This document shows positions 832-18,596 of a stretch of 64,000 nucleotides of DNA, piece after piece. The translations under genes were made by a program, and so were the position numbers. The notes beneath the pieces are model-generated. The model made no database searches. It worked only from the letters and a program-made list of their open reading frames with translations, and was not told where the DNA came from. Each line of letters begins with the position of its first letter. Positions within the stretch are counted from its first letter, which is position 1. Source of the DNA: Atopobiaceae bacterium. Its GTDB lineage: Bacteria; Actinomycetota; Coriobacteriia; Coriobacteriales; Atopobiaceae. Location: the NCBI GenBank assembly GCA_030525685.1, contig JAUNEG010000012.1:289-64288 (forward strand), given 5' to 3'.

Positions 832-1251
832 CTACCGCGCCGCCTCGAGCCGAGCGAGCACGGTCTTGGTGGCCGCGATCGCAGCGTCCACGTTGTCCTC
901 GGCGTCGGAGATCTTCTTCTGCACGTAGAGATCCACAAAGGGGTTGTCCACGAGGACGTCGAGGGCCGAGGCGATCGCGCCCACGTCCACGCGCAGCGCC
1001 TCGATGCCGCGAACGTCCGCGAGCTCGCGGGTGAACGCGTAGAGGTCGGCGCGGGCCTGGTCGAGCGCGCCGCGGGCGTCGTTGAGGCGCCAGTGCTTGA
1101 GGACGCTCGTCAAAGGTCCGCCCATCACCAGGTCGAAGAGCCCCCAGTTGCTCGCGCTGCCGAGGGCGTCGGCGGCCTCCTCCAGGCTGGCGAGCGCCCT
1201 GCGACCAGCCGACACGGCCTCCTGCACCTCGCGCCTCTCGTCCGGCGTCAT
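832..1251 (-). CDS. Hypothetical helical protein, 139 aa
   Basis: MTPDERREVQEAV...SNWGLFDLVMGG...; GC3-rich codon use; GGAGGG RBS upstream. Confidence 0.7.
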   Translation of the reverse strand: MTPDERREVQEAVSAGRRALASLEEAADALGSASNWGLFDLVMGGPLTSVLKHWRLNDARGALDQARADLYAFTRELADVRGIEALRVDVGAIASALDVLVDNPFVDLYVQKKISDAEDNVDAAIAATKTVLARLEAAR

Positions 1252-1419
1252 GGGACCCTCCTCGGTTCGAGTTCCTCTCGCCCATGGTAGCAGGCCCACG
1301 TACGGTCGCCGTGCGTAAGCCCCACGTAAATCCCTGAGAGCGATACCGTTTGCGGAGAACCGCGTACGGCCGGCCAAATTAGGCGCATACTTTTCCTATC
1401 CGTGGTCCTGAGGGAAGGA

Positions 1420-2505: not shown

Positions 2506-2591
2506 CGTCCTCCCCACACGCCCAGGCGCAGAGGCGGGGCCCTGAGGGGCTCCGCCTCTTCTCATGGCGAGAAGGGCATGCGCGCGTTGCC

Positions 2592-3554: not shown

Positions 3555-3699
3555 GAATGCTCACTCCCGTCAAAGGAAAAGACACCGAGAAGAACCCGGC
3601 GCCTTCCTAGGCTAGCAGAACGCCCGTGCCTGCGGGCGGAAAGCATGTCCCTGTCGAGGGAACGCATAACCCCGTGGATGGCCGGACCCACACAAGGGG

Positions 3700-3939
3700 G
3701 TGCTTAAGCTTTCGGGGTTGTTGTAGGTTCGCCGCATTCGAGCGCTTAAGAATTCGGAGTAGTTGTAGGCTCTGGCGCTGCTCCCTGTGGCGAGAAGTAC
3801 TTCTCGCCGATAAAACCGCAGTTGGCTCCTACGGGACAGCGCTTCTCGACGATGGAGCGCCCTCGGCGAGGCGCAACAACCCCAAATTCGTAAGCATCCA
3901 AACGACCGGACACTACAACTACCCCGAAGTCCTAAGCAC
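3700..3939. repeat. Intergenic element family A, copy 1 (nested inverted repeats around a palindrome)
   Basis: About 27-bp motif CTACAACTACCCCGAA.TC.TAAGCAC, reverse at 3700 and 3742, forward at 3873 and 3913; perfect 20-bp palindrome GGCGAGAAGTACTTCTCGCC at 3789-3808. Confidence 0.85.
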
Positions 3940-3997
3940 AAAGGGCGCCGACAAGCCCACGACAGGTGTAGCAGGCGCGAACCACCCCGCGCGACGC

Positions 3998-4519
3998 CTA
4001 CTCGGCGAGAAACACGCGGCCCTCGCGGCGCGGCTCGGCCTCGGGAACCTCCGCGGGGTACCCCAGGATGCAGTGGCCGATTCCCTCGTAGTCGCCCGCG
4101 ATGCCCAGCTCTGCGAGAATGGCCTTGCCCTCGGGCGCGTCGAACTCCTCGCGGGCGCGGTGGATCCAGCAGCTGCCCAGGCCGAGCGCATGCGCGGCGA
4201 GCATGAGGTTGCCCATCACGAGGCTGCCATCGTAGACGCGGTTGCGCTGGTCGCGCGGGGCGAGCACGACGAGGACGACCGGCGCGCCGTAGAACGGGTC
4301 GCGGTCGGGGTCGCCGATTATCTCCGCGTTCATGGCGGAGAGCCGGTCGCGCAGCTCGCGGTTCGTGATCGCGACGATGATGGGGTCCTGCTGGCCCATG
4401 CCGCTCGCCGCCCAGAGCGCGGCCTCGATCACGGCCTCGATCTGCTCTGTGCTCGGGACCTCGTCGGTGTAGGCGCGCACGCTGCGGCGCTCCTCCATGG
4501 CCCTGATGATCTCGTCCAT
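3998..4519 (-). CDS. Nitroreductase family protein
   Basis: RRSVRAY, WAASG, AAHALGLGSCWI motifs. Confidence 0.9.
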   Translation of the reverse strand: MDEIIRAMEERRSVRAYTDEVPSTEQIEAVIEAALWAASGMGQQDPIIVAITNRELRDRLSAMNAEIIGDPDRDPFYGAPVVLVVLAPRDQRNRVYDGSLVMGNLMLAAHALGLGSCWIHRAREEFDAPEGKAILAELGIAGDYEGIGHCILGYPAEVPEAEPRREGRVFLAE

Positions 4520-4576
4520 GATGCGCTCCTCTCGGGTGGGCCCGTCACGTTCGTTATACCCGAGAGGACGCGGCCG

Positions 4577-4944
4577 CTACCCCTCGACCTCGCGCAGCAG
4601 GTCGCGGGGTCCACGCCGTAGAGGCGAGCGAGCTTCACGAGGTTCGTGGTGGACGGCTCGGACGCGCCCTGCTCCCACTTCGAGACGGCCTGCCGGCTCA
4701 CGCCGAGCTTCTCGGCCACGAGCTCCTGCGTCATCTTGCAGCGCTCGCGGTGAGCGCGCAGCACCTCGCCGAGCGAGCGGCGCGCGGCCACGGTCTCGGG
4801 GCTCTTGTCAGCCTTCTCCTGCCGCAGGAACCAGCGGATGGCGAGGACCACCAGCACGATGAAGAGGACCCACGGAACAATACGGCCAAGGAGGATCGGA
4901 ATCAAGATTATCACGAGCTCCATCGGCCCCATCCCATAGATCAT
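4577..4944 (-). CDS. XRE-family HTH regulator with N-terminal transmembrane segment; apparent 1-nt frameshift near the 3' end
   Basis: MTQELVAEKLGVSRQAVSKWEQGASEPSTTNL HTH; AAGGAGG RBS; adding one base after GVDPA gives DLLREVEG-stop at 4577. Confidence 0.8.
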
Positions 4945-5011
4945 GACGCCCTCCTTACGCCGGCTTTGCCCCACTGTAGCCGAGCGCCGCGGTTGCGCAC
5001 ACCACCTATCG

Positions 5012-5278
5012 CGCAACGCGCGGAAGCGCATTGAGCACTTGCAGACTGACCCTAAAAGCTACTGCGTTTATATGCGCAATCTGTACTATGAGGAGCAAGC
5101 GGCCGAGAAGGAGAAGCGCCTCTCAGATTTTCTTTTGGAAAACCCAACAGCGTCCAAGCGTTCTGCGAGTAAGGCGCTTGGCATGTCCATGACGACCGTA
5201 TCGAAATACTGGTTATCGGCGTGTGAATCGGCTGGAATCAAAGACGCCAGAACCGGAAACCATTCGCCAAACTGTTAG
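5012..5278 (+). pseudogene. Detached C-terminal HTH portion of rep2
   Basis: RNARKRIEHL...DFLLENPTASKRSASKALGMSMTTVSKYW aligns with the rep1 tail (RNGRTQAEHV...EHPEASHSEIARALDVSRPTVIKW) and is in frame with rep2 across the 8-bp repeat. Confidence 0.75.
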
Positions 5279-5301
5279 GTAAATGCGCTGCTCATCATGG
5301 T

Positions 5302-5328
5302 ATACATATGCATGTTATACGTATGTAT
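5302..5328. promoter_or_regulatory. Putative RHH operator/centromere upstream of parA
   Basis: ATACATATGCAT (5302-5313) and ATACGTATGTAT (5317-5328), each one mismatch from palindrome ATACATATGTAT. Confidence 0.6.
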
Positions 5329-5343
5329 ACTAGGGAGGGAAAC

Positions 5344-5931
5344 GTGATAATCCCGGTTCTGAACATCAAGGGGGGCGTCGGCAAGACGACCACGGCCATA
5401 GCCCTCGCGACCGCAGCCGTCAGGGCTGGTCATGGGTCGAAGGTACTCGACGCCGACGAGCAGGGGAGCGCGACGCTGTGGGACGACACGGCTGAGCAGG
5501 CAGGTGAGCCCCTCCCCTTCCCCATCGACCCGATCAACGCGACGAGGATAAAGGCGCTCAGGCCGGAGGCCGACACATGGTGCTTCATCGACTGCGCCCC
5601 GAGCGGCAAGGCGCTCGACGCTGCCAAGGAGAAGGCCGACTTCGTCGTGATACCGACCACGCCAGCCGGTCTGGACATGCAGCAGACGTGGGTGACGGCC
5701 GAGAACCTTGTCGAGTCCGGCAAGCCGTATGCCGTGCTCCTCACGCGCACGCGCTCACACACGCTCGCGCTCGCAGCCGTGGAGCACGAGATGGAGGAGC
5801 GCGAGGCGTCGTACTTCGATGCGCAGATACCGCTGCGCGAGGACATCAAGAACTTCTTCGGGCACTCCTTCGGAAAGGACCTATACGGGTACGAGGACGT
5901 GTTCAAGGAGATTGAGGAGGCGCTTTCCTGA
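5344..5931 (+). CDS. parA: Small plasmid-type (type Ib) ParA ATPase
   Basis: Deviant Walker A KGGVGKTT, LDADEQGS, FIDCAP; no N-terminal HTH; GGGAGG RBS before GTG. Confidence 0.9.
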   Translation: MIIPVLNIKGGVGKTTTAIALATAAVRAGHGSKVLDADEQGSATLWDDTAEQAGEPLPFPIDPINATRIKALRPEADTWCFIDCAPSGKALDAAKEKADFVVIPTTPAGLDMQQTWVTAENLVESGKPYAVLLTRTRSHTLALAAVEHEMEEREASYFDAQIPLREDIKNFFGHSFGKDLYGYEDVFKEIEEALS

Positions 5932-6176
5932 TGGCGGTCAAGAAGAGGCCCAAGCCGATAATCGCCCCACAGCGGCAGAACGCCGGCCCGCTGCTCATGG
6001 ACAACCAAGACACCAAGAACAAAGGGGACGGCACGAAGGCACCGAAGAGGCCGACGACCATCCTCCTGCCGGACGACCTGAAGCGAGAGGCCCAGACATA
6101 CGCGGAGGAGCGCGGGACGACCCTGACAAGGCTCATCGTTGACGGACTTAGATGGAGGATTTCGCAGGTAGATTAG
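5931..6176 (+). CDS. Ribbon-helix-helix partition adaptor (ParG-like)
   Basis: Flexible N-terminus followed by TTILLPDDLKREAQTYAEERGTTLTRLIVDGL; start overlaps the parA stop. Confidence 0.75.
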   Translation: MAVKKRPKPIIAPQRQNAGPLLMDNQDTKNKGDGTKAPKRPTTILLPDDLKREAQTYAEERGTTLTRLIVDGLRWRISQVD

Positions 6177-6212
6177 CTATACATATGTATTTTATACATA
6201 TGTATAGCTAAT
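6171..6212. promoter_or_regulatory. Perfect 20-bp inverted repeat containing two ATACATATGTAT palindromes; putative centromere
   Basis: GATTAGCTATACATATGTAT-TT-ATACATATGTATAGCTAATC. Confidence 0.65.
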
Positions 6213-6217
6213 CTCAT

Positions 6218-6616
6218 CTAGGTCTTGTTTTTTGCATACAGCTCGTGGGAAGCGATGACGGCGGAATACAGTGAAATACATAAAGTAAATAACAGAAGGT
6301 GTGTCAAGTCGCTTGCAACGTGCTGTCTCAAGGCGTAGGCAGAAAATCCGTTTAGCAAATAAATAATACATGCAGATACGAGTGACGCTACGACACTGCT
6401 TCTGCGCCTATATGTTGAAAGAGCTACCAAAGCAATAAAAAACAGCGATATGAACCATTCTAAATAGGTTATTTCGCGCACTGAGAACGAGCATCCATGG
6501 AAATAATTAAAAACTGTATCTTTATATAGCAGATATAGAACAATCGAAGTAATCGTTGTTATGCTAATAAGATTCCTGGTAGACAAAACAACTACCTCTT
6601 CAGCGCCGTCGGCCAA
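6218..6616 (-). CDS. AT-rich multi-pass membrane protein (candidate immunity protein)
   Basis: 132-aa ORF with 3-4 hydrophobic stretches, directly downstream of a secreted protein; start codon uncertain. Confidence 0.6.
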   Translation of the reverse strand: MADGAEEVVVLSTRNLISITTITSIVLYLLYKDTVFNYFHGCSFSVREITYLEWFISLFFIALVALSTYRRRSSVVASLVSACIIYLLNGFSAYALRQHVASDLTHLLLFTLCISLYSAVIASHELYAKNKT

Positions 6617-6653
6617 ACGGGTTTGGCCGACGGCGATTGCTTCTGCTATATGC

Positions 6654-7268
6654 CTATGAAATCACAATATTGAAGCCCTGTCCTCCGGCCGTTGTTACAT
6701 CCAACGAGGCGTTGACATAGTAAACAACCACGATACCACTGTAGCTCTTGCTCTTATTCATACTCGTGCTCTTGACGTTATTTGCGGTATGAGACACGCT
6801 TCCCTCATACGCAATGACATATCCTCCAGAAACGACTCCATAGGATTGACAATTGACGCTCATGGTCATTGATTTTGGAGTCGAACCAGATGTTACTGTT
6901 GCTTTCGTATTGCCGCCGTAGTTGTATTCAAATGTTCCATTATGCCAAAAGCTTCCGCTGAAGCGTACTGTTGTCCCATACTGGGTTTTCGTTTGGTTGA
7001 AGTTTCTCGTTTGGTTTTGAGCTCTTGTTTGTGGCGATTGCGCGTCCATCGCATACATCTCAATGAACTTGGCATCTTCACCGGTAACTACGTCGCCTGG
7101 ATCATACTTATCGTAGAGTTCGTCGAAGCGTTCGCTGATTTGCTCTTGAGATAGATTAGATAAGGACTCTTCGGCATATGCCTGTGTCGGATTAAAGGCA
7201 GAAATCACAAGTGCCGTCAGCGCAAGGGTGATGGAGAATGCTAATGCAGCCATCCTTCTTGCAATCAT
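6654..7268 (-). CDS. Sec-secreted protein with acidic pro-like region and beta-rich C-terminal domain
   Basis: Signal peptide MIARRMAALAFSITLALTALVISAFNPTQAYA; AGGAGG RBS; AT-richer than host DNA. Confidence 0.8.
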   Translation of the reverse strand: MIARRMAALAFSITLALTALVISAFNPTQAYAEESLSNLSQEQISERFDELYDKYDPGDVVTGEDAKFIEMYAMDAQSPQTRAQNQTRNFNQTKTQYGTTVRFSGSFWHNGTFEYNYGGNTKATVTSGSTPKSMTMSVNCQSYGVVSGGYVIAYEGSVSHTANNVKSTSMNKSKSYSGIVVVYYVNASLDVTTAGGQGFNIVIS

Positions 7269-7454
7269 TTTTGCCTCCTTTACTCCGTCTGCTTATTCTG
7301 AAGGCGCGCCATCCGCTGACTTCAGAATGAATTATAATAGCCGCATGTTCATGGCTTTAGATTCATTCGATAGGCGGTAGGAATATGCCACTGGCGGTCC
7401 ACTCTTACACCGATACTCAAGTCGCATGGCCCGAGTTTTGCGATAAGTGCATTG

Positions 7455-7724
7455 TTATGCTTGGGCTGCTAGGTAGTAGTCAAGTGCGTCTCGGTAGACC
7501 TCTGAGGTCTTGACCCCCCGGCTGCGGGCTATCGCCGCCACGCGCTGCGTGTCTCTCGCGTCGTAGATGACCGTCACGCGGCGCTTGCCCACCGCGTCGA
7601 GGTGGGAGCCGGTGAAGACCTCTCCGCCCCCGCTCGGATAGTCTCCGCTCTCGTAGGGAGCGGCCATCGCGTCGAGTTCGGCGTCGGTGAGGCCGTGCTT
7701 CCTCATGTACTCGGATACGTTCAT
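7455..7724 (-). CDS. RHH/CopG-like antitoxin (BrnA-like)
   Basis: C-terminal RVTVIYDARDTQRVAAIARSRGVKTSEVYRDALD; follows the toxin gene. Confidence 0.7.
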   Translation of the reverse strand: MNVSEYMRKHGLTDAELDAMAAPYESGDYPSGGGEVFTGSHLDAVGKRRVTVIYDARDTQRVAAIARSRGVKTSEVYRDALDYYLAAQA

Positions 7725-7729
7725 GCTTC

Positions 7730-7990
7730 TCACCTCTCCAATCCTAGCTCGCGGAGCGTCTTGCCGGTCGGCGGTGTCATTCCGTGGAACACAAAGAAGA
7801 AGTCGTCCTCCTCGTCGTACTGGTAGACCAGCTCAACGAGCCTCCCCCTGCCGTCAAGGCCGACCGCCAGCCACTCGCCCGTCGGGCGCTGGTGATAGGA
7901 AATCATCCCGCGCATCGCGGCGGTGACGTCCTCCGGCGTGACCTCCGGGTGCCGCTGCGTGACCCTTGGGTGAACCCCTATCGTGCTCAA
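7730..7990 (-). CDS. BrnT-like toxin
   Basis: VHPRVTQRHPE...WLAVGLDGRGRLVELV...VFHGM pattern; toxin-first order; TTG start with GAGGAGG RBS. Confidence 0.7.
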   Translation of the reverse strand: MSTIGVHPRVTQRHPEVTPEDVTAAMRGMISYHQRPTGEWLAVGLDGRGRLVELVYQYDEEDDFFFVFHGMTPPTGKTLRELGLER

Positions 7991-8008
7991 GGCGTCCTCC
8001 TCTCGAAC

Positions 8009-8027
8009 ATATGATGTGACATCATAT
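8009..8027. promoter_or_regulatory. Putative TA operator
   Basis: Perfect inverted repeat ATATGATG-TGA-CATCATAT upstream of the toxin gene. Confidence 0.55.
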
Positions 8028-8385
8028 CATACTATGCTGATACCCAAGGACAGGAGACCCAAAACAGGGCGCTCGCGCAGCTGGATGGGCCGCACACACA
8101 GCCTAGAAATTGTGTTAGCTGGAATCCGTAAATTATGTTAAACGAGCTGGTGAACGATGTCGTTTTGACATGGAAGACCCCGGCCCTCGCGGCGCTCCGT
8201 TTGCGCCGTTGGTGCCGAGATCTTCGCTGCGGCGGTATCTCGTGGGCTGCGATTGCCCGGAGAGCCTACCGCGCCCGCCGTCCCTCTGGCTGCGGTTGCC
8301 CGACAACGGTTTGGCTGTCACCCGGATTGTAACCGACGCCCATACCCTGTTGGATAAAACAACCAGCCCTCGCGGCGGCAGTGCC

Positions 8386-8760
8386 TCAAACCGGCCTCAC
8401 GTCGCACTCGGGCACGTGCTTGTGGAGGCACGGCTCGCCGTCGCAGGCGGGCGACTCACGCACGAAGACGTCATAGGACCAGTCGCAGCCCTTGAAGGCC
8501 CTCCGCCCGCGCCCACGGTAGTCCACTGTCCCCACCGTCCCGGACAGCTCGCCCCACTTCGTCTCGAACCTCACGGCGTCGCCGACTTTGAAGCGCGGGC
8601 GGTGGCGTCGCGCCCATTCGTCCCAAGGCTCGCACTCCACGACGTTCGCCACGCCGCGCCGGTCTATGACGGCGGCGACGGCCTCCTCCATCGAGTCGGC
8701 ATCGACGGGAACGGGCACCCAGCTGCCGTCGTCCGTGAGCACCGTCACGCGCCACGTCAA
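8386..8760 (-). CDS. Hypothetical protein, 124 aa, with possible SH3/KOW-like C-terminal domain
   Basis: TTGA start/stop overlap with the upstream ORF; PRFKVGDAVRF...GTVGTVD. Confidence 0.55.
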   Translation of the reverse strand: MTWRVTVLTDDGSWVPVPVDADSMEEAVAAVIDRRGVANVVECEPWDEWARRHRPRFKVGDAVRFETKWGELSGTVGTVDYRGRGRRAFKGCDWSYDVFVRESPACDGEPCLHKHVPECDVRPV

Positions 8761-8924
8761 CGCCGACCACCGTCCTCCCGCCCCTCGACGGCCCCCTCCT
8801 GTATCGCGGCCACCGAGTCGATGATTTTCTTCATGTCCAGCGCGAGCTGACGGCACTCGGCCTTCGTCTCGCACGCCCCGAACCAGCGCACCACGTCGTC
8901 TGAGGCGACCTCCAAGAGGTTCAC
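8757..8924 (-). CDS. Small hypothetical protein, 55 aa
   Basis: GTG start with GGAAGG RBS; tightly packed between neighbouring ORFs. Confidence 0.45.
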   Translation of the reverse strand: MNLLEVASDDVVRWFGACETKAECRQLALDMKKIIDSVAAIQEGAVEGREDGGRR

Positions 8925-8928
8925 GGAC

Positions 8929-9081
8929 TTAACCCTTCCTGTCTGCCGCTTCCTCGCGATCCCTGCCTTTGCGCTCCCAAGTGCGCAGCCGCTTCGCGGC
9001 GTCAGCCGTCGGCAGCTCCTCGGCCCTGCACTCGGTGATTTTGTAGCCGTAGCGGTCAATCCACGCCGCCAGAGCGTCCAT
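8929..9081 (-). CDS. Small hypothetical protein, 50 aa
   Basis: MDALAAWIDRYGYKITEC...; first gene of an operon divergent from relBE. Confidence 0.4.
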   Translation of the reverse strand: MDALAAWIDRYGYKITECRAEELPTADAAKRLRTWERKGRDREEAADRKG

Positions 9082-9169
9082 GTCGATTTGCTTCCAGTCC
9101 CCGTCGCGAGCGTGGAAAGTTGTTATATAATAGTATATACCGACATACACCAACGAAGGGAGGGGCGAC

Positions 9170-9406
9170 ATGGCGACAGCGCTGACGGCAATCAGGGCGC
9201 CGGAGGAAGTGATGGAGCGCTACACGCGCCTCGCGCAGGGCACGGGCAGGTCGAGGAGCTTCTACATCAACGAGGCTCTTGAGGAGTCCATCGACCGCCT
9301 TGAGTACGAGTACGGGATTCTCCGCAAGGTCGAAGACTGGCGTGCGGGAAGGCTTGAGACCGTGAGCCTCGACGAGCTGGAGGACAGCCTTGGCTTGGCG
9401 GATTGA
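9170..9406 (+). CDS. relB: RHH antitoxin (RelB-like)
   Basis: TAIRAPEEVMERYTRLAQGTGRSRSFYINEAL; overlaps relE. Confidence 0.8.
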   Translation: MATALTAIRAPEEVMERYTRLAQGTGRSRSFYINEALEESIDRLEYEYGILRKVEDWRAGRLETVSLDELEDSLGLAD

Positions 9407-9662
9407 AATCGACAAGGACGTCCAGCGGGAGATGAAGAAGCTGGACAAGCAGGTCGCCAAGAGAATCACGGCCAAGCTGTGGGAAGTGTCGCAGCTCGAT
9501 GACCCGAGGAGCATGGGCAAGGGGCTGACCGGAAACCTCGCTGGTCTGTGGCGCTATCGGGTCGGCGACTACCGAATCATCTGCGACATCGAGGACGGCG
9601 TGCTTCTGATCCTCGTTGTCGATGTGGCGCACAGGCGCGAGGTCTACAAGCGCCGGGGATAG
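9390..9662 (+). CDS. relE: RelE/ParE-family toxin
   Basis: GKGLTGNLAGLWRYRVGDYRII...VAHRREVY. Confidence 0.9.
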   Translation: MAWRIEIDKDVQREMKKLDKQVAKRITAKLWEVSQLDDPRSMGKGLTGNLAGLWRYRVGDYRIICDIEDGVLLILVVDVAHRREVYKRRG

Positions 9663-9700
9663 CCGGAAGCCCCCTCGGACGCCGTTCCGCAGGGGGCTTC
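9661..9700 (+). terminator. Hairpin terminator; copy 1 of a 40-bp direct repeat
   Basis: GAAGCCCCCT...AGGGGGCTTC stem; 38/40 identical to 15526-15565. Confidence 0.8.
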
Positions 9701-9847
9701 CTCATGGGTGACCAATTACTGTATTGATAAATAAAAGGTCTGGCGGCGTGCCCGTATCGAGGGTGTAAAATAGCTTCATTGAATAATAATATGATCGGCG
9801 CCGCCGCCGCCGACCCCTATATGTTGTGGTTGGGGATGGAGGGTGCA

Positions 9848-11428
9848 ATGGCAGAGGTTCGGAGCGTTGACGAGCAGGTTGCCGAGTACGTCAACAAGCA
9901 CGCCGCCCTGATGCTTGAGCTTGGTGAGCCTGTGACGCCCTACCGCTTCTACCGTGAGGTGTTCCCGGAGGGCTTCTTGCAGGATGCCTACCGGGTGAAC
10001 CCCGCTGCGCCCCATGACGGGAAGTTCGTCGCCATCGCCAACGTGATTCACGAGAGGAAGGACGGCAAGGGCGTCTACCGCAGGAACCACTACGTCCTCG
10101 ATGACCTCACCCAGATAACCAAGTGGACGAACCAGGTGGCGTTCATGACCCCGTGCTCGTTCCTCGGTGGGGCCAAAGACCTCGAGCACCTGCGCTACCT
10201 GCACGCCATCGTCGTTGATCTCGACTACGTGGGCGCTCAGCAGCTCACGGACGTGTTCCACCAGTGCCAGATAGGGTTCCTCCCCACACCGACCTTCATC
10301 GTGAACTCCGGCACCGGGCTTCACCTGTACTACGTCCTAGAGCAGCCCGTCACCTGCTACAAGAAGCAGCAGGAGTGCTACAACGCCCTGAAGCACGCGC
10401 TCATCGACCTGTGCTGGAACGAGTACACGTCGCAGAGCGGCGACCGCCAGTACTCCGGTCTCGTGCAGCCCTACCGCATCCCCGGCACGCGGACGAAGCT
10501 CGACGTGGACAGGGAGACGCAGAGGGTCGTTTCGAGCGACTTCCCCGTGACCGCGTTCCGCTACGGCGGCAAGTGGACCATAGACGCGCTGCTCGACTGG
10601 GAGCCGCGCCCGAACGTCGGCACGCGCTACTACACCGAGCGCTGCGCCGGAATCCGAAAGATGCTGCGCGGCGAGATAGACGGCTTCGAGATAGCGAACA
10701 ACGGGCGCTACGTCGAGCACGGGGAGGGCAAGGTGCCGCTCGAGGTCGCCAAGGAGCGGTGGCCGGAGTGCTACGACCGCCGCATCCTGCACGGCGAGCC
10801 GCCGAAGGAAATCAAGGACTACAAGTGGCACGTGAACCCGCGCGTCTACGAGTGGTGGCTGCGCAAGATAAAGGCCGACGCGGAGCCGGGGCACCGGTAC
10901 CACTGCATCATGTGCCTCGCCATCTACGCCATCAAGTGCGACGTGCCCTACGCCAAGCTCAAGGAGGACGCCTACTCGCTCCTCGAGGTGTTCGACGGGC
11001 GCACCACCGAGGAGACGAACCACTTCCACGCCAGCGACATCGCCCAGGCGCTCAAGGCGTACCGAAACAAGGTCTACGCCACGTTCCCCATCGGCTCTAT
11101 CGAGTACTTCTCCGGCCTCCGAATTGATCGAAACCGCCGCAATGGTAGAACCCAAGCCGAGCACGTTGCGAGGATGAGCGCGCTTAGGGATGTTGACTAC
11201 CCAGACGGCTCATGGCGCAACAAGGGCGGCGCGCCCACGAAGAGCGAGCGGATACGCGCCTACGCCGTCGAGCACCCGGAGGCAAGCCACAGCGAGATTG
11301 CCCGCGCCCTCGACGTGTCCAGACCGACCGTAATCAAGTGGCTCAAGCCGGGGTGGCGCGAGGAGTGGGACGAGGAGCACAGGCCGCGCATCACCGGCCA
11401 CGTGCTCACGGTGAGATACGTCAGGTAG
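9848..11428 (+). CDS. Plasmid replication initiator rep1 (AEP/primase-like domain, helical domain, C-terminal HTH)
   Basis: VVDLD, NSGTGLHLYY, YRIPGT, PGHRYHCIM and C-terminal HTH; GGAGG RBS before ATG 9848. Confidence 0.8.
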   Translation: MAEVRSVDEQVAEYVNKHAALMLELGEPVTPYRFYREVFPEGFLQDAYRVNPAAPHDGKFVAIANVIHERKDGKGVYRRNHYVLDDLTQITKWTNQVAFMTPCSFLGGAKDLEHLRYLHAIVVDLDYVGAQQLTDVFHQCQIGFLPTPTFIVNSGTGLHLYYVLEQPVTCYKKQQECYNALKHALIDLCWNEYTSQSGDRQYSGLVQPYRIPGTRTKLDVDRETQRVVSSDFPVTAFRYGGKWTIDALLDWEPRPNVGTRYYTERCAGIRKMLRGEIDGFEIANNGRYVEHGEGKVPLEVAKERWPECYDRRILHGEPPKEIKDYKWHVNPRVYEWWLRKIKADAEPGHRYHCIMCLAIYAIKCDVPYAKLKEDAYSLLEVFDGRTTEETNHFHASDIAQALKAYRNKVYATFPIGSIEYFSGLRIDRNRRNGRTQAEHVARMSALRDVDYPDGSWRNKGGAPTKSERIRAYAVEHPEASHSEIARALDVSRPTVIKWLKPGWREEWDEEHRPRITGHVLTVRYVR

Positions 11429-11433
11429 GGCGG

Positions 11434-11488
11434 GTGTGCTCGCTTTGTCGCACACGGTAGAATGGGGTGTGCGCGCTTTGTGGCACAC
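11434..11488. promoter_or_regulatory. Two 22-bp GTGTG...CACAC repeats with 33-bp period flanking TAGAAT (copy 1)
   Basis: GTGTGCTCGCTTTGTCGCACAC (11434) and GTGTGCGCGCTTTGTGGCACAC (11467); repeated at 11850-11904. Confidence 0.65.
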
Positions 11489-11502
11489 CCGGCTCAACAG
11501 GG

Positions 11503-11844
11503 GAGTACTTCTCCGGCCTCCGAATTGATCGAAACCGCCGAAATGGAAACAGGCAAGCGGAACACCTCGAAGAGGCGCGTGCCATACGCGACGTTAGGCA
11601 GAAGCGCAAAGGCTCGAACTGGTGGGACAACGGGAACAGGAGCGGTGCGCCGGAGAAGAAGAACATCGTGCGCGCCTATGCCGTCGAGCATCCGGGCGAG
11701 AGCAACAGGAAGGTCGCCGCAGCGCTCGGAATGAGCCGCAACACCGTCAACAAGTGGCTCAAGCCGGGGTGGCGCGAGGAGTGGGACGAGGAGCACAGGC
11801 CGCTCATCACCGGCCACGTGATCACGGTGAGGCGCGGCAGATAG
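11503..11844 (+). other. Start-less alternative 3' cassette of rep1 (second HTH tail)
   Basis: Begins with 38 bp identical to 11102-11139; open frame EYFSGLRIDRNRRNG...HTH...TVRRGR-stop; no RBS or ATG. Confidence 0.85.
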
Positions 11845-11924
11845 GGCGGGTGTGCTCGCTTTGTCCCACACGGTAGAATGAGGTGTGCGCGCTTTGTGGC
11901 ACACCCGGATCAACAGGGGAAACG

Positions 11925-12239
11925 ATGGCGGAGAAGAGCAAGAACACACAACACATATCGCTGCGCGTGCCGCTCAAGGAGCTGTCCGTCATAGACATCT
12001 ACGCCGCCGCGAACGACCTCTCCCGCGCACAGGCCGTGCTCCACTTCGTGCGTCAGAGCATCGCCGCCGAGACGGGGGAGAAGCCGGTTACGAAGTCAGA
12101 CCTCGTCGCCCTCGCAGCCACGCTCACGAAGGCAATCGAGAGCCAGCCCGTCAGCGTGCAGCTGCCGCCGCAGCCACCGCCCCCGGCGCTCGAGTCGAGC
12201 AAGCAGAAGAAGCGACCGTGGTGGCGGTTCTGGGGCTGA
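11925..12239 (+). CDS. RHH (CopG-like) plasmid protein with basic-aromatic C-terminal tail
   Basis: QHISLRVPLKELSVIDIYAAANDLSRAQAV; ends KKRPWWRFWG. Confidence 0.7.
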   Translation: MAEKSKNTQHISLRVPLKELSVIDIYAAANDLSRAQAVLHFVRQSIAAETGEKPVTKSDLVALAATLTKAIESQPVSVQLPPQPPPPALESSKQKKRPWWRFWG

Positions 12240-12558
12240 GCTCCCGATAGTCGTGGTTGGCCCTTCCATTCAGTAGGGTGTCAAATTGTGCACCCTTGAC
12301 CTAATGCGACACATCCGTTCATGGCGCTGATTTATCCATTAGCCGAACAGTAAAGATGTTCTGTTCTCTTAGGGCGAGGTCAGGGTATATCCCATCAATC
12401 AAACTGCATTGGCGAGGGGTGGGTTTATGTCTCCGATAGATTTTGTCCGCATCAGAACCCATTATCCCCGTGAAAATGGCCTCCTATCCTAGCGGTACCG
12501 AATCGCATTCGATGCCGCCAATCACTCAGCAAAATGGTGATGATATTGGAGGTGCCTC

Positions 12559-13263
12559 ATGAAGCTCACGCGCAGAACCTTTCTTTCGTCCGCTGCGGCT
12601 GCCGCCTCGTTTCTTCTAATCCCCAAGAGTGCACTTGCAGCGCAGACTGATGATGTCGGTGAATTTCCAGATGAGTCTCCTGTTTCGGTCGAGATAATCG
12701 ATGAGGATACTTTTTCTATCCAGGACTCCTACGGGACATGGATTGTTTCCATTAGTGAATCTGGCCCGTACAGAATCACTGCTGCCGTGGCTCCGGATGG
12801 ATCTCAGGAAACCATTTCCTATAACAGGAAAACTGGAGAGGCCTATTCGTCAGCTACGGTTCAGGTTGTTATTCTCGGGGTTGATGAAACCTATCAAGAT
12901 GTCCCGGAGACCAAGGGTGTTATCGACCATGATCCTCAGCCAATTTACAATGGGCCATCGAGGAAGGAAACCGAGTACATCTCGTATCAGCAGCTGAAGT
13001 CGATTGCTGGAAGCGTGTCGAATGTTGCCGGCATTCTGATAGCAATAGCCGGTATCGTTGGATTTTCCATCGTTGGGACGTTCGTCGCCGGATTCGTTAA
13101 CGACAACATAGGACGCATCCTCGACGCCCTTTCCGATGGTGACCCCAATCATGGCCTAAAGCTCAAAGTTACTTTGACTGAACGGTATACCATCCATCCC
13201 ACGACCGGGGCTCACATTTACTACGACACTCTCAGGACCGTAAACAGCGTTAGCTTCTATTAG
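12559..13263 (+). CDS. Twin-arginine-signal secreted protein with hydrophobic C-terminal segment (candidate bacteriocin/toxin)
   Basis: TRRTFL Tat motif and ALA cleavage site; GILIAIAGIVGFSIVGTFVAGFV hydrophobic run; GGAGG RBS. Confidence 0.75.
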   Translation: MKLTRRTFLSSAAAAASFLLIPKSALAAQTDDVGEFPDESPVSVEIIDEDTFSIQDSYGTWIVSISESGPYRITAAVAPDGSQETISYNRKTGEAYSSATVQVVILGVDETYQDVPETKGVIDHDPQPIYNGPSRKETEYISYQQLKSIAGSVSNVAGILIAIAGIVGFSIVGTFVAGFVNDNIGRILDALSDGDPNHGLKLKVTLTERYTIHPTTGAHIYYDTLRTVNSVSFY

Positions 13264-13279
13264 CTGGCGATTTGCACGA

Positions 13280-13705
13280 TTGGATGAACCAATGGCGCTG
13301 CGAAAAATGGACGATCGGAGCACCCGAATCAACAAGATTGCCTCCATCGTTTTTGCCGTCTGCTTTGTGACAATGGTTGCTGTCGGTTCGATGCAGGATG
13401 TCGTCCTCCCCGTCAGACTTGCCCTTGCCATCGTGGGGACGCTAGCCGCATTTTTAGGAAGCCCGCTGTTCGGACGACTCGGCATGACGTGGGTTTCCTT
13501 TTTCTTCGTCTCCGGAATCTTGAGGATGTCGGCAGATGCGAGAATTCAGTTTGCCCTTCTCGTAATTGAGGCGGCATTGATTGTCTTCTACATTGGGCTT
13601 GTCAGAACTGGGAAGTGTAAAGACGAGCAAAAAGTGGGGGGAATCGCGCTAGTGGTAGCCGACGTCCTATTATTTGCAGATGTTGCCATGACTCATGTGA
13701 TTTAG
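13280..13705 (+). CDS. Four-to-five-TM membrane protein (candidate immunity protein)
   Basis: Hydrophobic 141-aa ORF starting 16 nt after the Tat-protein stop; an inverted repeat AAGGGTCGATGG/CCATCGACCCTT follows near 13819-13853. Confidence 0.65.
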   Translation: MDEPMALRKMDDRSTRINKIASIVFAVCFVTMVAVGSMQDVVLPVRLALAIVGTLAAFLGSPLFGRLGMTWVSFFFVSGILRMSADARIQFALLVIEAALIVFYIGLVRTGKCKDEQKVGGIALVVADVLLFADVAMTHVI

Positions 13706-14045
13706 TGCAACGTTTCCGTGGCTCCGACTCTCATGACGCAGTGTTCCGACCCTTTGGGCCGGAACGACTCCCCTGGTTCGAACAAGAAAGTCACACGCGC
13801 TCGCAGGCTTGGGCAAAGAAAGGGTCGATGGAGCAGAGCGTCCATCGACCCTTAATCAAGTCTGGTCTTGTCGGCTGACCGTCGCGTCAATTCCGCAATC
13901 CGTGAACGAGGTCTCCGTAGATCCGCTGCGCGGAACTACTCCGCCCCCGTGGTCACGCATTGCTGCATTGACCCGACTACCCTTCCTCACCTGCAAGCAA
14001 ATCATATCTGTAGCTCTTGAGATACTCGCGCATGAATTTACCTAT

Positions 14046-14327
14046 TTACGCTATGGCCATGAGGCCGTCGGCGAGGATTCCACGGGCATATGCGCCCGTT
14101 GACTTGCCCTCGGCCTTCGCTTCCTTCTCAAGAGCCCGCTTCATGGCGGCGGGAACCTTGAGTGACAGCGTCACGGTCTCGGGCGCGGCCTTCGGGAGCT
14201 TGCCCTCGACGATCTCGCCGACGTTGACCCATCCGCTGGGCCACTCATCGCGCTCAAGGGCGCTTTCCCAGTCGGCAATCATCTCGTCGGTCACGACCCT
14301 GCCGTTCTCGGCAACAATTCCGTTCAT
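14046..14327 (-). CDS. RHH antitoxin (BrnA/CopG-like)
   Basis: ETVTLSLKVPAAMKRALEKEAKAEGKSTGAYARGIL; GGAGG RBS. Confidence 0.7.
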   Translation of the reverse strand: MNGIVAENGRVVTDEMIADWESALERDEWPSGWVNVGEIVEGKLPKAAPETVTLSLKVPAAMKRALEKEAKAEGKSTGAYARGILADGLMAIA

Positions 14328-14329
14328 GT

Positions 14330-14584
14330 CTACCTCCATCCCAGCTCACGCTTGAATTTCTTCGCCGGCGGCACCATCGCGTGAAACACGCACCAGACGC
14401 CGTCGATATCCATGAACCCAATCAGCTCGGCAAACCTCCCATCGGGAAGCGAGCCGACCGAAATCCAGAGCGGCGGGTCATCCGTGCCGTTTCGCTGGCG
14501 GCACCGAATCGGGTTCTCCCACGCATACGCGACTTCCTCGCTGGTAAGCCCGTGCTTGAGGGCGTTCCCGTGCACTCTGACCAC
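14330..14584 (-). CDS. BrnT-like toxin
   Basis: VHGNALKHGL...WISVGSLPDGRFAELI...VFHAM. Confidence 0.75.
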   Translation of the reverse strand: MVRVHGNALKHGLTSEEVAYAWENPIRCRQRNGTDDPPLWISVGSLPDGRFAELIGFMDIDGVWCVFHAMVPPAKKFKRELGWR

Positions 14585-15024
14585 TGCCGTCCTCCCTTCT
14601 TTTCTAGTAAGTATACCCTATTAGTATACCAAATCAAAAGCACCGTGCTCCCAACACGCAAACGGGGGTGGCGTCACCCCCGTTTCCATGCCGCGAGCAC
14701 TCTCGCACTGCTGTACTAGCAGTGCTCACCGGCCAAGGCCACTCTCCGAGTTGCAAGATTTGGGAAAGGGTACTCAAATCCCGCTTTTGGCGGCATTTTC
14801 CTCCCTTTCCATCTTGCCTTTCGGGCGGACTTAGGGTCCCTCCCGAAAGGGGGTAAGAACACGCGGATGGCTTCATCCTTGATATAGTCCAAAACCGCGT
14901 TTTCGGACTTCCGAAAAACGCTTTCGGGAAATCGGCACGGTGGCTTCACCGTGGTTCCCGATTCCCGATTTCTGAAAACCGCAAACCCACGATTAGAGAA
15001 AGGGGGCTGGAACCCGCTCCGCAG

Positions 15025-15249
15025 ATGGTCTCAGAGAGCCTCAGAGCGCCCTGGACGGCTCGAAGCGATGGAGCGCGAGAGGAAAGCTTGCAGGAGAGGT
15101 TGAGGGCCTTAGAAAGCGAATCAGAGCGTTTGAAGGCCAAAATCAGCGAGCGCGAGAGCGAGTGGCGGAGCTTGACCGAGGGCTGTCTGGGCTTCGAGTG
15201 GGACGACCGCCAGTGGCGTGCAAGCTTCGTGTCCCGTCAACGGACGTAA
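15025..15249 (+). CDS. Short coiled-coil ORF, possibly a remnant
   Basis: LQERLRALESESERLKAKISERE heptad pattern; no clear RBS. Confidence 0.3.
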   Translation: MVSESLRAPWTARSDGAREESLQERLRALESESERLKAKISERESEWRSLTEGCLGFEWDDRQWRASFVSRQRT

Positions 15250-15418
15250 AACGTCCTTATCGACGGGACACCGGGCGGTCCCCTCCCGGCTTGCCCTTGC
15301 CCGCGCGAGGGAGGGCCGGCCCGCGCCGGCCGCCGCTCCCGCGGGGCGGGAGGGCACCGCCCCGCGGCGGTGCGAGAGCGGGCCCCGCGGCCCGCACGTC
15401 AGGGAAGGTGGTGCGTCG

Positions 15419-15511
15419 GTGAAGGTGACGAGCGCGCCCGGCCTCATCGCGGGAATCGCCCTGCCGGTCGTCATCTTCGGAGCCGGGTTCCTCCTCGGCA
15501 AGGACAGGTAG
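15419..15511 (+). CDS. 30-aa single-TM peptide (candidate type I toxin)
   Basis: MKVTSAPGLIAGIALPVVIFGAGFLLGKDR; GTG start with GGAAGG upstream; terminator follows. Confidence 0.5.
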   Translation: MKVTSAPGLIAGIALPVVIFGAGFLLGKDR

Positions 15512-15525
15512 ACGGCCAGCAGGAG

Positions 15526-15565
15526 AGCCGGAAGCCCCCTCGGGAGCCGTTCCGCAGGGGGCTTC
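15526..15565 (+). terminator. Hairpin terminator; copy 2 of the 40-bp direct repeat
   Basis: 38/40 identical to 9661-9700. Confidence 0.8.
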
Positions 15566-15764
15566 GTCTTGGCCGCGAGGCCAGTTGTCGTAACAACGAA
15601 ATACGGGCTATCAGCCTTGGCTTGGTACGGAAAAACGGGCTTCCAAGGGACCGTTTTCCGTACCAAGTGATACACTTCTATTGTTCAAATTACACCCCTC
15701 AATGCTGACTGTGGGGATAGGGCAAGGGAAGGGGAGTCCCCTTCCGCTCGGATTGGAGGTCCCC

Positions 15765-17450
15765 ATGCCTTCCGGCCGCATCACTCCCGACCATCCGACC
15801 GTACGCATCAACCCCTTTGAAATTCGCTCCTCCTCCCTTCCCGACGAGCAGAAGGAAGCCCTCCTCGCCTTCTGGAGCGAGCAGCAGCTCGCCGAGGAGG
15901 CCGAGCGTCAGGAGAGGGAGCTGGCGTATCAGACGGAGCAGGCCCGCTTCGTCCTGTCCCAGCCCGGCTGGTGCGAGATTCGCGCCGATTGGCTCGACCA
16001 AGCGCGGAACAGGCGGGACAGGAACGAGTGGTGCTTGGACTCCGCTGCAAGGTCATACGTCTACGACGATGACGGCAGGGGATACAGTCTCCTCTCCCTG
16101 CCCGAGGACGTTCCGACAATCCATCAGTTCTACCGTGACCTCTACGGCACCGAGGTGTCCGCCTTCCTGCCCGAGCCCTGCCCCATCCTCGTCAACCACC
16201 GGGACAGGAAGCACCCATATCAGGTCTATGACGACTACGAGACGTTCACAGAGGCCGTCCAGAAGGAGACGTCCTTCATCTACCTCGGGAGATTCTGGGA
16301 GCCGACCCGCAGGGACGGGCTCAGGTTCTCGACGTCAAAGAAGAACGTCATGACGCACATAAGCGGCGTGTGCGTGGACATCGACCGCGTCGAGGACGAC
16401 AAGGGTCAGCACTTCCAAGCGAGATGGGTGATGGAAAGCCTCTTCGAGTTCCTTTGGGAGAACGAGGGTCTTACGCCGAACTATCTCATGCTCTCGGGAA
16501 CGGGCATCCAGCTATGGTACGTGTTCGGCCAGTCCATACCCCTGCTGTCGAAGTCATCCCCGAGGCGTTCCAAGTACGATTCCTTCATCAAACTCCTGTA
16601 CGCCCACTTCGACGAGAGGCTGCCGAAGAACAGGTTCAAGGTCGATAAGGCGTGCGCCGCCTACAACCATGCCTTCCGCGCCCCCGGCTCCCCTTCAAAG
16701 AACGGGTATCCGGCCCGTCTCTTCGTGAGGGAAGGCGCGAGCCGCCCCATGATTGATCCAATCGCCCTTTCCGACCAAATCGGGGCCGAGCTGAAGCCCT
16801 ATGACGTCGGCGATTGGGATTCCGATGGGTTTGCGGCCATGACCGGCAGGAAGGGCGGCGGAAAGTCGCCAGCGAGCGAAAAGCAGCTTGCCTACATCCG
16901 CAAGCTTCACGCCAGGGGGTGCATAGATGACGAGACGTTCGGCAGGGCCGCCGAGATGACCATCGCCGATGCCGACGCTGCCATCAAGGCTGGAGAGAGC
17001 TCGTTCGTGAACGGTCTGCACTGGCGCGAGACGCAGGGAGGGTATGCCGAGACGACCAACGGGCACCGCGTGAAGCTCAGGCCGAGGAGCAGGAAGCTCT
17101 ACGAAAACACGCTCGAAAGGGTGCTCGCCGAGACGAAGCCCGGCTCGCGCTACATGTCGATGTTCGTCTTGGCTGGCCTCGCCTACAACTGCAACGTCTC
17201 GAAATCGTCTCTAGAGCACGACCTGAGAAAGCTCATGGACAGCGACTGGGGGCGCAAGCCGTCGCCGTCCGACGGGCATCCCATAACGATGCGAGACATA
17301 CGCTCGGCCATGAAGGGATACAACCCGATTGGGTGTCTGAGGAGCAGGGAGATAATCGAGGGGCTTGTCGGCTGGTCGTTCGGCCCGTCGGCGAAGCGCA
17401 ACGGCAGGTTGCGTTTCGGTTGCGGCGGGAACGTCCGCCTGGGGGCCTAG
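15765..17450 (+). pseudogene. Replication initiator rep2, interrupted at 17403; last 15 codons are host-derived
   Basis: CVDID, LSGTGIQLWY, FRAPGS, PGSRYMSM; similarity to rep1 ends at KRN and the HTH tail lies at 5012-5278. Confidence 0.75.
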
Positions 17451-18322
17451 CCGAAGAGGCTCAGGCGTGCGAGGGAGCGCCGGCAGGAGGAGAGGTCGAG
17501 CCCGCCGGGGCGGCGCAGCGACGAGAAGCAGATGGGGACCGACAGGCCGTCGCTCTTCGCAAGCGGGCGCATGACGAAGCCCTCGGGCGCCCCGGTGACG
17601 TTGCCGACGAAGATGAACGAGTAGCCCCTGTCCACGATGGAGGGGTCGAAGGACGGGCCCTCCGGGGCAAGGTCCACGACCTCGGAGCGCAGGCCCCGCC
17701 TGACGTACTCGTCGACCACGGCGTGCGCGTAGTGCTCGAAGCCCACCGGTCGGAGCACGGGATAGTCCGCGAGGTCGTCGAGCGTGAGGACGTCCTTGCC
17801 GGCAAGAGGGTGGCCCGTGGAGACGAGCACGTCGGAGGAGACGGTGCCGAGCTGACCGCACGCCACGTCGTCCGCCTCGAGCGGCCCCATGGTGATGAGG
17901 GCGTCCTCGCGCCCTGAGCGCAGCGCGTCGAGCGCGTCCACGCAGGGCGTCAGCTCGACGTCGACCTGACGGCCGAGGATCTTGCTCGTCACTGCTGAGA
18001 TGAGGCGGACGAGCCGGTCGATGCCCGGATACTCCAGGTAGCAGAAGCCCAGGCGGAAGGGGATCGCGGGGGCGCTCGCGAAGCGCTCGAGCGCGTCCCA
18101 CTCGTCGAGCACCCGATGGGCGCGCGTCGCGAAGGCGCGGCAGAGCGGGGTGGGCGTGACGCCCGCGCTGCGACGCTCGAAGAGGGGCTCGCCGAGCACG
18201 CCCTCGAGCTCCGCCATGGCCTTGGAGACCGCCTGCACGGAGACGCCCTCCCGCGCGGCGGCGGCGGAGAAGCTCCCCAGGTCCACGATGGCGCAGACGT
18301 ATCTGACCTGCTTGATGTTCAT
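17447..18322 (-). CDS. LysR-family transcriptional regulator
   Basis: MNIKQVRYVCAIVDLGSFSAAA...VSVQAVSKAMAELE...LFER. Confidence 0.9.
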   Translation of the reverse strand: MNIKQVRYVCAIVDLGSFSAAAAREGVSVQAVSKAMAELEGVLGEPLFERRSAGVTPTPLCRAFATRAHRVLDEWDALERFASAPAIPFRLGFCYLEYPGIDRLVRLISAVTSKILGRQVDVELTPCVDALDALRSGREDALITMGPLEADDVACGQLGTVSSDVLVSTGHPLAGKDVLTLDDLADYPVLRPVGFEHYAHAVVDEYVRRGLRSEVVDLAPEGPSFDPSIVDRGYSFIFVGNVTGAPEGFVMRPLAKSDGLSVPICFSSLRRPGGLDLSSCRRSLARLSLFG

Positions 18323-18596
18323 GACCCCCCCCCGGCACTCTCTTGCCCTAGATTCTTTTAATGGTTGCACATGGCCGATGGTTAACCTTTGGTAACCGCT
18401 ACCGTTAACGCACGGTTGAACGTAGCGGCGTGCGTTCGGCGAAGCCGGAGTACGCTCACGGGATTTGCCGGGCGCGCGGGCGTCAGGCGTCCTACAATGC
18501 CGATGGATGTGAGAACGTTTCCAGTCAGAAAGGCACCCAGCACATGGCGCACGAGAAGAACGTCGCGCCCGCGCCGCAGGGCCCGCGCCGCGCCCG

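Follow-up and report, generated by a model that had tools for sequence, protein, structure and literature searches.

An Atopobiaceae chromosome harbours a 12,385-bp plasmid broken within its own primase-type replicase gene, probably as the result of a single short-homology recombination

Small plasmids are known to enter chromosomes by illegitimate recombination at short homologies, an example being pE194 in Bacillus subtilis. A different route is taken by the "suicidal" integrases of the archaeal SSV family, whose attP site is located inside the int gene, which is split upon integration (PMC7253208, PMC8371274); the divided gene codes for the recombinase itself, and the conserved att sequence, which it has in common with a tRNA gene, serves repeatedly. 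In the present work, we analysed a stretch of 64,000 nucleotides (referred to as the window; GenBank assembly GCA_030525685.1, contig JAUNEG010000012.1, positions 289 to 64,288 of the forward strand) from an Atopobiaceae member which is a Thermophilibacter/Olsenella-like gut bacterium. Its segment 5024-17408 represents a plasmid (12,385 bp) in circular permutation, integrated in the chromosome and interrupted in the replicase gene rep2, the 5′ part of which exits the element at its right end while the 3′ part, encoding a helix-turn-helix (HTH) domain, enters from the left end. A single recent illegitimate recombination based on short homology is the best reading of this arrangement, with a probability of about 0.77 by our estimate. 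The locus reveals neither a new integration mechanism nor a regulatory switch; the kind of event is already known, the plasmid family of gut Coriobacteriia involved, whose replicases (Rep) belong to the archaeo-eukaryotic primase (AEP) type, is uncharacterised.

The locus shares with events of the pE194 type the lack of an own recombinase, a reciprocal exchange between circle and chromosome at a few common bases, a circularly permuted plasmid and an interrupted plasmid gene. It deviates from them by having arisen naturally, in an anaerobic actinobacterium of the gut, and not under laboratory selection, by the recovery of the free, empty and integrated forms from public data, and by its predicted replication via an AEP-type primase instead of a rolling circle, which makes the classical nick-site hot spot inapplicable. 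As in the SSV family, a key gene of the element is split to both ends and would be restored by exact excision; here, however, the split gene encodes a primase-type replicase, only 2 bp are shared (10 of 13 positions when mismatches are included) and the event is unique.

The octamer GCGCAACG is found on the plus strand at 5011-5018 and 17396-17403, both copies as reported in an initial annotation of this DNA, which interpreted the segment as a plasmid integrated by cutting its own rep gene. At the left junction (attL, 5011-5023, plus strand), the sequence reads GCGCAACG-CGC-GG and is chromosomal through 5023 and plasmid-derived from 5024 onwards; at the right junction (attR, 17396-17408, plus strand), it reads GCGCAACG-GCA-GG and is plasmid-derived through 17408 and chromosomal from 17409. 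The empty site is represented by contigs from four metagenome runs (X1-X4), which match the left flank up to 5023 and then proceed with TTGCGTTTCGGTTGCGGCGGGAACGTCCGC, equivalent to window positions 17409-17438. The contig from X1 shows 3 differences over 358 nt followed by 30 out of 30 letters of the right flank, indicating the same species without the element; other strains with an empty site are represented as well. The flanks are likewise contiguous in three related genomes (G004, G006 and G020; ...CACCTATC GCGCAACG TGCGGTTGCGTTTGGGTTGCGG...), and the same arrangement of an empty site is present in Thermophilibacter gallinarum DSM 107455, a match that also assigns the host to a Thermophilibacter/Olsenella-like genus within the Atopobiaceae. 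The free form is documented by plasmid contigs from four independent gut runs, mostly of chicken or bird origin (X12, X17, X23 and X24), in which rep2 extends to 17406-17408 and continues with AAGCGCATTGAGCACTTGCAGACTGACCCT, corresponding to window positions 5024-5053. The joint leads in each of the four runs from 17406 to 5022, a step back of 12,385 bases with 2 shared letters, and the rebuilt join yields the same circle of 12,385 bp. Together, the plasmid and the empty-site contigs, each from four runs, bear out an integrated plasmid broken in its own rep gene as well as the circle size previously proposed for it. The element also differs in base composition from the rest of the window (58.7% versus 69.0% G+C).

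The availability of all four forms defines the exchange point. The empty site (attB) has the sequence CTATC-GCGCAACG-CGC-GG/TTGCGTTTCGG, the slash marking the exchange, and is positioned in an intergenic spacer of 116 nt, and the plasmid site (attP) has the sequence GCGAA-GCGCAACG-GCA-GG/AAGCGCATTGAG within the codons of the conserved KRNGRKR motif of rep2. attL is composed of the left half of attB and the right half of attP, attR of the left half of attP and the right half of attB, and no base was gained or lost, which characterizes the exchange as reciprocal and base-perfect. The three nucleotides between the octamer and the following GG retain their parental identity (CGC chromosomal, GCA plasmid-derived), which locates the crossover at the GG (5022-5023 / 17407-17408), 3 nt to the right of the octamer, and shifts it by 5 nt in total. 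Around it, the partners are identical at 10 of 13 positions, the GG being the only identity at the exchange point itself. The octamer, considered as the site of joining in the initial annotation, is ruled out as crossover point by the free and empty forms. Recombination inside the octamer would also be in frame but give KRNA, whereas the exact reversal at GG, 3 nt further right, generates KRNGRKRIEHLQ (KRNGRKR; circle junction ...AACGGCAGG/AAGCGC...) with the glycine found in nearly all homologues. The circle size is not affected by this shift. As a bare 8-mer, GCGCAACG is no more frequent than expected by chance (7 copies across the window compared to 6.96 in shuffled sequences) and was rejected as a significant repeat; the reality of the pair is derived from independent evidence, namely the joined frame, the plasmid contigs, the circle size and the family scan described below, and not from the 8-mer itself.

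The two parts of rep2 constitute a single gene. The 5′ part (15762-17408, plus strand), with 549 codons for the primase and helical domains, belongs to an open reading frame (ORF; 15681-17450) with a probable ATG start at 15762 and the end ...GWSFGPSAKRNGRLRFGCGGNVRLGA; in the integrated state, the frame reads into the chromosome to a stop codon at 17448-17450, resulting in a product of 562 residues ending with ...KRNGRLRFGCGGNVRLGA. Its nucleotide sequence is 94% and 87% identical to those of the free relatives L017 and L016, respectively. The 3′ fragment (5024-5278, plus strand) contains 84 codons and the stop codon for a variable linker and the C-terminal HTH, with 84% identity to residues 562-648 of the L016 Rep (tblastn); the frame entering at 5019 at the left end reads ARKRIEHLQTDPKSY...GMSMTTVSKYW...NHSPNC. 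When joined, both parts form one open frame of 633 codons, in agreement with the earlier prediction that excision restores a full-length in-frame Rep, and the translated protein is colinear with the homologues P0002 (87%) and P0001 (88%), no residue being inserted or deleted at the join, P0002 passing through it without a gap (...GWSFGPSAKRNGRNRMEHLQTDPKSYCVYMRNLHYEE...GMSMTTVQKYW...). A search with the joined protein returned 38 proteins, the best ones having 640-690 residues and covering residues 300-632 completely, with identities of up to 84% there. Across 29 aligned homologues, Arg562, Asn563, Arg565, His570 and Leu571 of the KRNGR..HL motif are invariant, and all 29 sequences continue into the HTH. 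The Rep family does thus not end at KRNG, an objection which the initial annotation had raised against itself, and its claim that integration detaches the HTH from rep2 is substantiated by the position of linker and HTH at the element's other end.

The adjacency of the two parts is also evident from the plasmid that encodes P0002. This 9,613-bp contig of the Logan collection (L016) carries a terminal overlap of 30 nt indicative of a circle. Window positions 15665-17408 match L016 positions 3327-5058 and window positions 5022-6205 match 5057-6241, so that both rep2 parts are exactly adjacent in the plasmid, and the rebuilt core gives a single blastn match across the join to L016 (87%) and L022 (80%). 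The gene order rep-parA-81-residue gene in L016 equals that of the window behind the 3′ rep fragment (5308-6176); this order, together with intact colinear Rep homologues, is found on small contigs of plasmid size, among them the circular L016. The unbroken rep2 on free plasmids, suggested as a check in the initial annotation, is represented by the plasmid contigs of the four runs and, as a homologue, by the L016 circle. PLSDB contained no near-identical plasmid, only a match of 180 nt (8801-8980) to small plasmids of Collinsella and Eggerthella, while tblastn detected only distant Rep matches which span the join.

An AlphaFold model of P0002, calculated from the 29-sequence alignment, has a mean predicted local distance difference test (pLDDT) value of 82. 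Foldseek relates it to RepB′ of plasmid RSF1010 (pdb-code: 3h20; E 5e-4, probability 1.00) and further to the CAPP Prim-Pol domain (pdb-code: 7nqd; probability 0.99), the poxvirus D5 primase-helicase and the pRN1 primase, the TM-scores being low due to the multi-domain character of the query. At the AEP motifs (DxD, sGxG, R-x-PG), Asp226, Asp228, Gly266, Gly268, Arg326, Ala327 and Pro328 (P0002 numbering) are invariant across the 29 homologues, and Rep2 of the window contains DIDRV, SGTGIQLWYVF and RAPGSPSK at the corresponding positions. Based on this modelled fold, Rep2 is predicted to be a RepB′-like primase-type initiator of the AEP superfamily with a C-terminal HTH, and neither an HUH nuclease nor a recombinase. 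AEPs on bacterial mobile elements have been surveyed before (PMC5862659). Rep2 resembles RepB′, pRN1 ORF904 and CAPP Prim-Pol in its fold, its acidic and glycine motifs and the succession of a catalytic and a helical domain; unlike those replicases it has ca. 650 residues and a C-terminal HTH behind a variable linker, and a helicase domain was not detected. The N-terminal 85% of Rep2 did not match any Pfam or NCBIfam model. The break falls into a linker of low model confidence (residues ~555-590) that connects the helical domain to the HTH. The segment from KRNGR..HL to the HTH (P0002 residues ~566-600) exists in at least three unrelated variants (TDPKSYCVYMRN..., ADNWFE.QDDG... and WGDWTVE.DDG...), whose distribution does not follow the N-terminal similarity, which suggests an exchange of cassettes among plasmids.

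A recombinase was sought in the element and its vicinity. Among 98 stop-to-stop frames of at least 70 residues in window positions 4900-17500, Pfam matches were restricted to ParA, ParE, ribbon-helix-helix (RHH) and HTH families, and no integrase, resolvase, transposase or relaxase was present, as the initial annotation had already supposed; a search of the element proteins against NCBIfam likewise gave no recombinase family. The gene split by integration itself codes for a primase fold without a recombinase domain. The free relatives L016 and L017 possess a MobA_MobL relaxase upstream of rep, for which tblastn with the L016 protein found no counterpart in the window, and terminal inverted repeats were not found on the element. 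A site symmetry of the type used by serine or tyrosine recombinases was considered and dismissed: on the chromosomal side, the inverted repeat CGCAAC-N5-GTTGCG is centred 2-3 nt off the exchange point, and the plasmid side offers a direct repeat (AAGCGCA twice) and no inverted one.

The event appears to be singular. Only the genome of the window itself, out of 272 genomes of the host family, contains rep2, and a rep2 split at the KRNG codon is absent from all 77 related loci (13 from species-representative genomes and 64 from metagenomes), so that insertions at the same codon in relatives, as suggested in the initial annotation, were not encountered. In the 13 genome loci, the few matches stopping short end at a contig edge, and the 64 metagenome loci (JGI/ENA contigs) all reach residue 646-647 unless cut by the contig end; close Rep relatives reside on contigs of 2.7-13 kb. 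Junction-spanning words of the integrated form occur in no indexed public run, a 146-nt junction query retrieving only runs with one side or the other. Moreover, the core on the plasmid side differs among relatives at synonymous positions (window, GCGCAACGGCAGG; L016, GCGTAATGGCAGG; L017, GAGGAACGGGCGA) and is thus not maintained as a DNA site. The lack of split loci and of a public junction and the unconserved core fit a single illegitimate recombination and argue against a dedicated site or a switch. The on/off replication switch originally envisaged is consequently not supported, the more so as the second replicase gene, rep1, is intact including its HTH and the element not obviously replication-dead; the one-off illegitimate recombination, mentioned there as an alternative, provides the best fit. 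From what is established on RecA-independent deletion, a loss of the segment between two 8-bp repeats at a distance of 12.4 kb should occur only extremely rarely.

Slackia harbours a distant clade of this Rep family (31% identity; L105, positions 903-4578, L028, L029 and many metagenome loci) in chromosomal location, on contigs of up to 182 kb. The rep gene of this clade is intact and accompanied by a tyrosine integrase (PF00589, E 1e-25), which adjoins a Na+/H+ antiporter gene, and a ParA gene is located nearby. This locus constitutes an integrative element based on the same replicase. The Slackia elements thus correspond to that of the window in Rep family, nearby ParA and chromosomal location, but combine a tyrosine integrase with a full-length rep, whereas the window element has no integrase and a split rep.

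We propose the following scenario: A free plasmid circle with two replicons (12,385 bp) would have recombined once with the chromosome via short homology, independently of a recombinase. The exchange at the shared GG parted the primase/helical portion of rep2 from its linker and HTH and left the host genes intact. The join may have been made by the general DNA metabolism, e.g. by microhomology-mediated end joining, a topoisomerase error or a template switch during replication, and presumably not by an enzyme of the element, as Rep2 is an AEP-type primase by prediction and no recombinase is encoded. The break within rep2 might be due to chance or to a selection for integrants with lost rep2 function, the latter being conceivable because the presence of an active replicon in integrated form is often detrimental. 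The integration is presumably recent, considering that both parts of rep2 have retained open frames and an identity of 94-98% to free plasmids. Several observations, however, are less easily reconciled with this scenario. Both junctions of the integrated form are known from one assembly. The crossover is located inside a highly conserved Rep motif with invariant Arg562, Asn563 and Arg565. Related plasmids switch their linker variant ~6-27 nt downstream of the crossover, the matches of L017, L021, L023 and L024 ending at positions 1991-2012 of the rebuilt core compared to the join at 1985, and the tandem rep1 cassettes described below start to diverge at the homologous RRNG codons. A purely random break as near to this position would have a probability of ~0.5%. 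The KRNGR stretch might accordingly be a hot spot for swaps of HTH cassettes and, occasionally, for a reversible integrase-free integration that splits rep; this would make a replicase the bacterial equivalent of the self-splitting integrases of archaea. An exchange at conserved motifs is to be expected between diverged plasmids and not with a chromosome, which leaves room for a local hot spot, although we assign a low probability to it.

An alternative is a programmed reversible integration, in which an unrecognised recombinase of element or host would use an attP inside rep2, integration silencing replication and excision restoring it. The reciprocal and base-perfect exchange, the preserved reading frame at both joins, the break in a conserved motif at a domain boundary within the low-confidence linker (residues ~555-590), the chromosomal site within the densest CGCAAC/GTTGCG cluster of the window, the presence of several element ORFs without known family and the parallel to SSV-type integrases, which split their own gene upon integration, would conform to it. 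Such a system is nevertheless unlikely in view of the 98 frames without a recombinase family, the 2 bp identical at the crossover (10/13 around it), the plasmid-side site unconserved as DNA even in close relatives and the absence of the split from all 77 loci; in addition, the distant chromosomal Rep relatives have an adjoining tyrosine integrase with rep intact, and with the intact rep1 of the element, replication is not obviously off. The fact that junction-spanning words occur in no indexed public run, that the source assembly is a draft of 49 contigs and 92.6% completeness, and that samples of a similar kind frequently contain free plasmids as well as empty sites, raises the question of whether an assembler or the binning has wrongly joined a free plasmid into a chromosomal contig. 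We consider this improbable as well: it would require two false joins, exactly reciprocal, that insert one complete permuted plasmid without gain or loss of a base, at a place where plasmid and chromosome are identical over 8 + 2 bases, far below the word size of assemblers, and the assembly contains no separate rep2 contig.

An enzymatic origin of another kind can be judged from the same junctions. If GCGCAACG, which flanks the element as an 8-bp direct repeat and is present once in the empty site, were the target-site duplication of a transposition-like insertion, removal of the element and one copy would not be needed to restore rep. The octamer, however, exists already in the free plasmid beside the join, the 3 nt following it retain their parental identity with the exchange at GG, and neither terminal inverted repeats nor a transposase are found; the duplication is thus refuted by the free-plasmid and empty-site contigs, and the probability left to transposition is negligible. 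Relaxases can catalyse site-specific integration, as TrwC of R388 does, and the MobA_MobL protein of the free relatives might have acted in trans by joining a transferred strand to an oriT-like chromosomal sequence. We assign a very low probability to this route, as the element has no relaxase, the junction lies inside rep and not in the mob region where oriT would be expected, and no oriT-like inverted repeat is adjacent to the plasmid-side site. A crossover at the replication origin was also rejected, since the best origin candidate, a hairpin upstream of rep2 (~15621-15667), is situated away from the break. The single short-homology recombination therefore remains our preferred interpretation.

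The insertion separates two host regulator genes. To the left, a membrane-anchored XRE-type HTH regulator (4429-4945, minus strand; Pfam HTH_3, E 6e-18) is retained in the empty-site relatives; its translation likely begins at the ATG at 4945, behind a GGAGG, whereas the extended ORF up to 5031, which runs into the junction, is probably not real. To the right, a LysR-family regulator (17447-18370, minus strand; Pfam HTH_1 and LysR_substrate) has its stop codon 38 nt from the junction and is 74% identical to its counterpart in Thermophilibacter gallinarum, which adjoins the empty site. The empty site (window 4987-5023 + 17409-17426) accommodates, in the spacer from the stop codon of LysR to the start of the XRE gene, four CGCAAC/GTTGCG motifs within ~60 bp, including the inverted repeat CGCAAC-N5-GTTGCG. 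The cluster is conserved in relatives and probably constitutes an operator now split by the insertion. Palindromes favour breakage.

Behind the 3′ rep fragment follows a partition module consisting of a ParA ATPase (5308-5931, plus strand; Pfam CbiA/AAA_31/ParA) and an 81-residue partner (5931-6176, plus strand), 91% identical to the genes directly after the intact rep in L016. Palindromic boxes of the TATACATATG type at 5301-5329 and 6170-6214 flank the pair, are conserved in L016 and L017 and probably serve as centromere or operator sites of the module. The adjacent cargo (6218-9114, minus strand) did not match any Pfam or NCBIfam family and comprises an AT-rich pair of a secreted (6654-7268) and a membrane protein (6218-6616), small ORFs (7455-7990) and an ORF of 162 residues (8386-8874). 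Within the element, PLSDB offers a near match for the stretch 8801-8980 alone (89-90% to small plasmids of Collinsella aerofaciens and Eggerthella lenta), which falls under or beside the "Rep family protein" gene of these plasmids. An RHH antitoxin (9170-9406, plus strand; RHH_1, E 1e-3) and a ParE toxin (9390-9662, plus strand; ParE_toxin, E 3e-14) precede the intact rep1 gene (9779-11428, plus strand), which encodes a second replicase of the same superfamily with 549 residues and a C-terminal HTH (HTH_23 at 488-523), 22% identical to the L016 Rep over 388 residues (E 8e-12). The C-terminal part of rep1, together with a downstream box, is present twice in 11102-11920 (401 and ~417 nt, 85-87% identical). 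The additional tandem cassette of linker and HTH (11503-11920, plus strand; ~85% identical to 11102-11504) is still an open frame, and the RRNG codons mark the point from which the two copies differ. Only one cassette exists on a related rep1 plasmid contig from run X24, where a joint from 11251 to 11668 skips 416 nt. Further cargo in 11883-15423 includes an RHH protein (11883-12239), a secreted protein (12559-13263), a membrane protein (13280-13705) and an RHH antitoxin-like pair (14046-14584, minus strand).

The free rep2 plasmids share with the window only 15424-17408 and 5022-6207; in X17, 7471-9114 is additionally joined to the par module. Their sequences depart from that of the window upstream of 15424, where they carry MobA_MobL instead, the mob module being missing from the integrated element. 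The rep1 segment 9121-12249 is found in X24 on a separate contig, the one with the single cassette, in which a joint leads from 15511 to 9121, 6,391 bases back. Because of this separate rep1 contig and the restricted common rep2 core, the element is to be considered as a mosaic or cointegrate of rep1- and rep2-type replicons, the halves corresponding to 9121-15511 (~6.4 kb) and to 15512-17408 plus 5024-9120 (~6.0 kb). In the region upstream of rep2 (15522-15667, plus strand), a hairpin box of 51 nt (15522-15572) recurs upstream of rep1 (9657-9707), and a long hairpin with a perfect stem (~15621-15667; CTTGGTACGGAAAAACGG...CCGTTTTCCGTACCAAG) directly precedes rep2, with a DNA folding energy of -24.8 kcal/mol (z = -4.0). 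For the RepB′-like primase, the latter is a candidate origin or site of single-strand initiation.

The locus provides a natural and well documented case of a plasmid that entered a chromosome without any integrase. Because public data contain both junctions along with the empty site and the free plasmid, the exchange can be read to the base, namely a GG beside an imperfect match of 13 bp. It illustrates a route by which gut Coriobacteriia may fix plasmid cargo, such as toxin-antitoxin systems and pairs of secreted and membrane proteins, in their chromosome, and points to an AEP-primase Rep family, widespread on small plasmids of Coriobacteriia, which had no Pfam or NCBIfam match in these searches.

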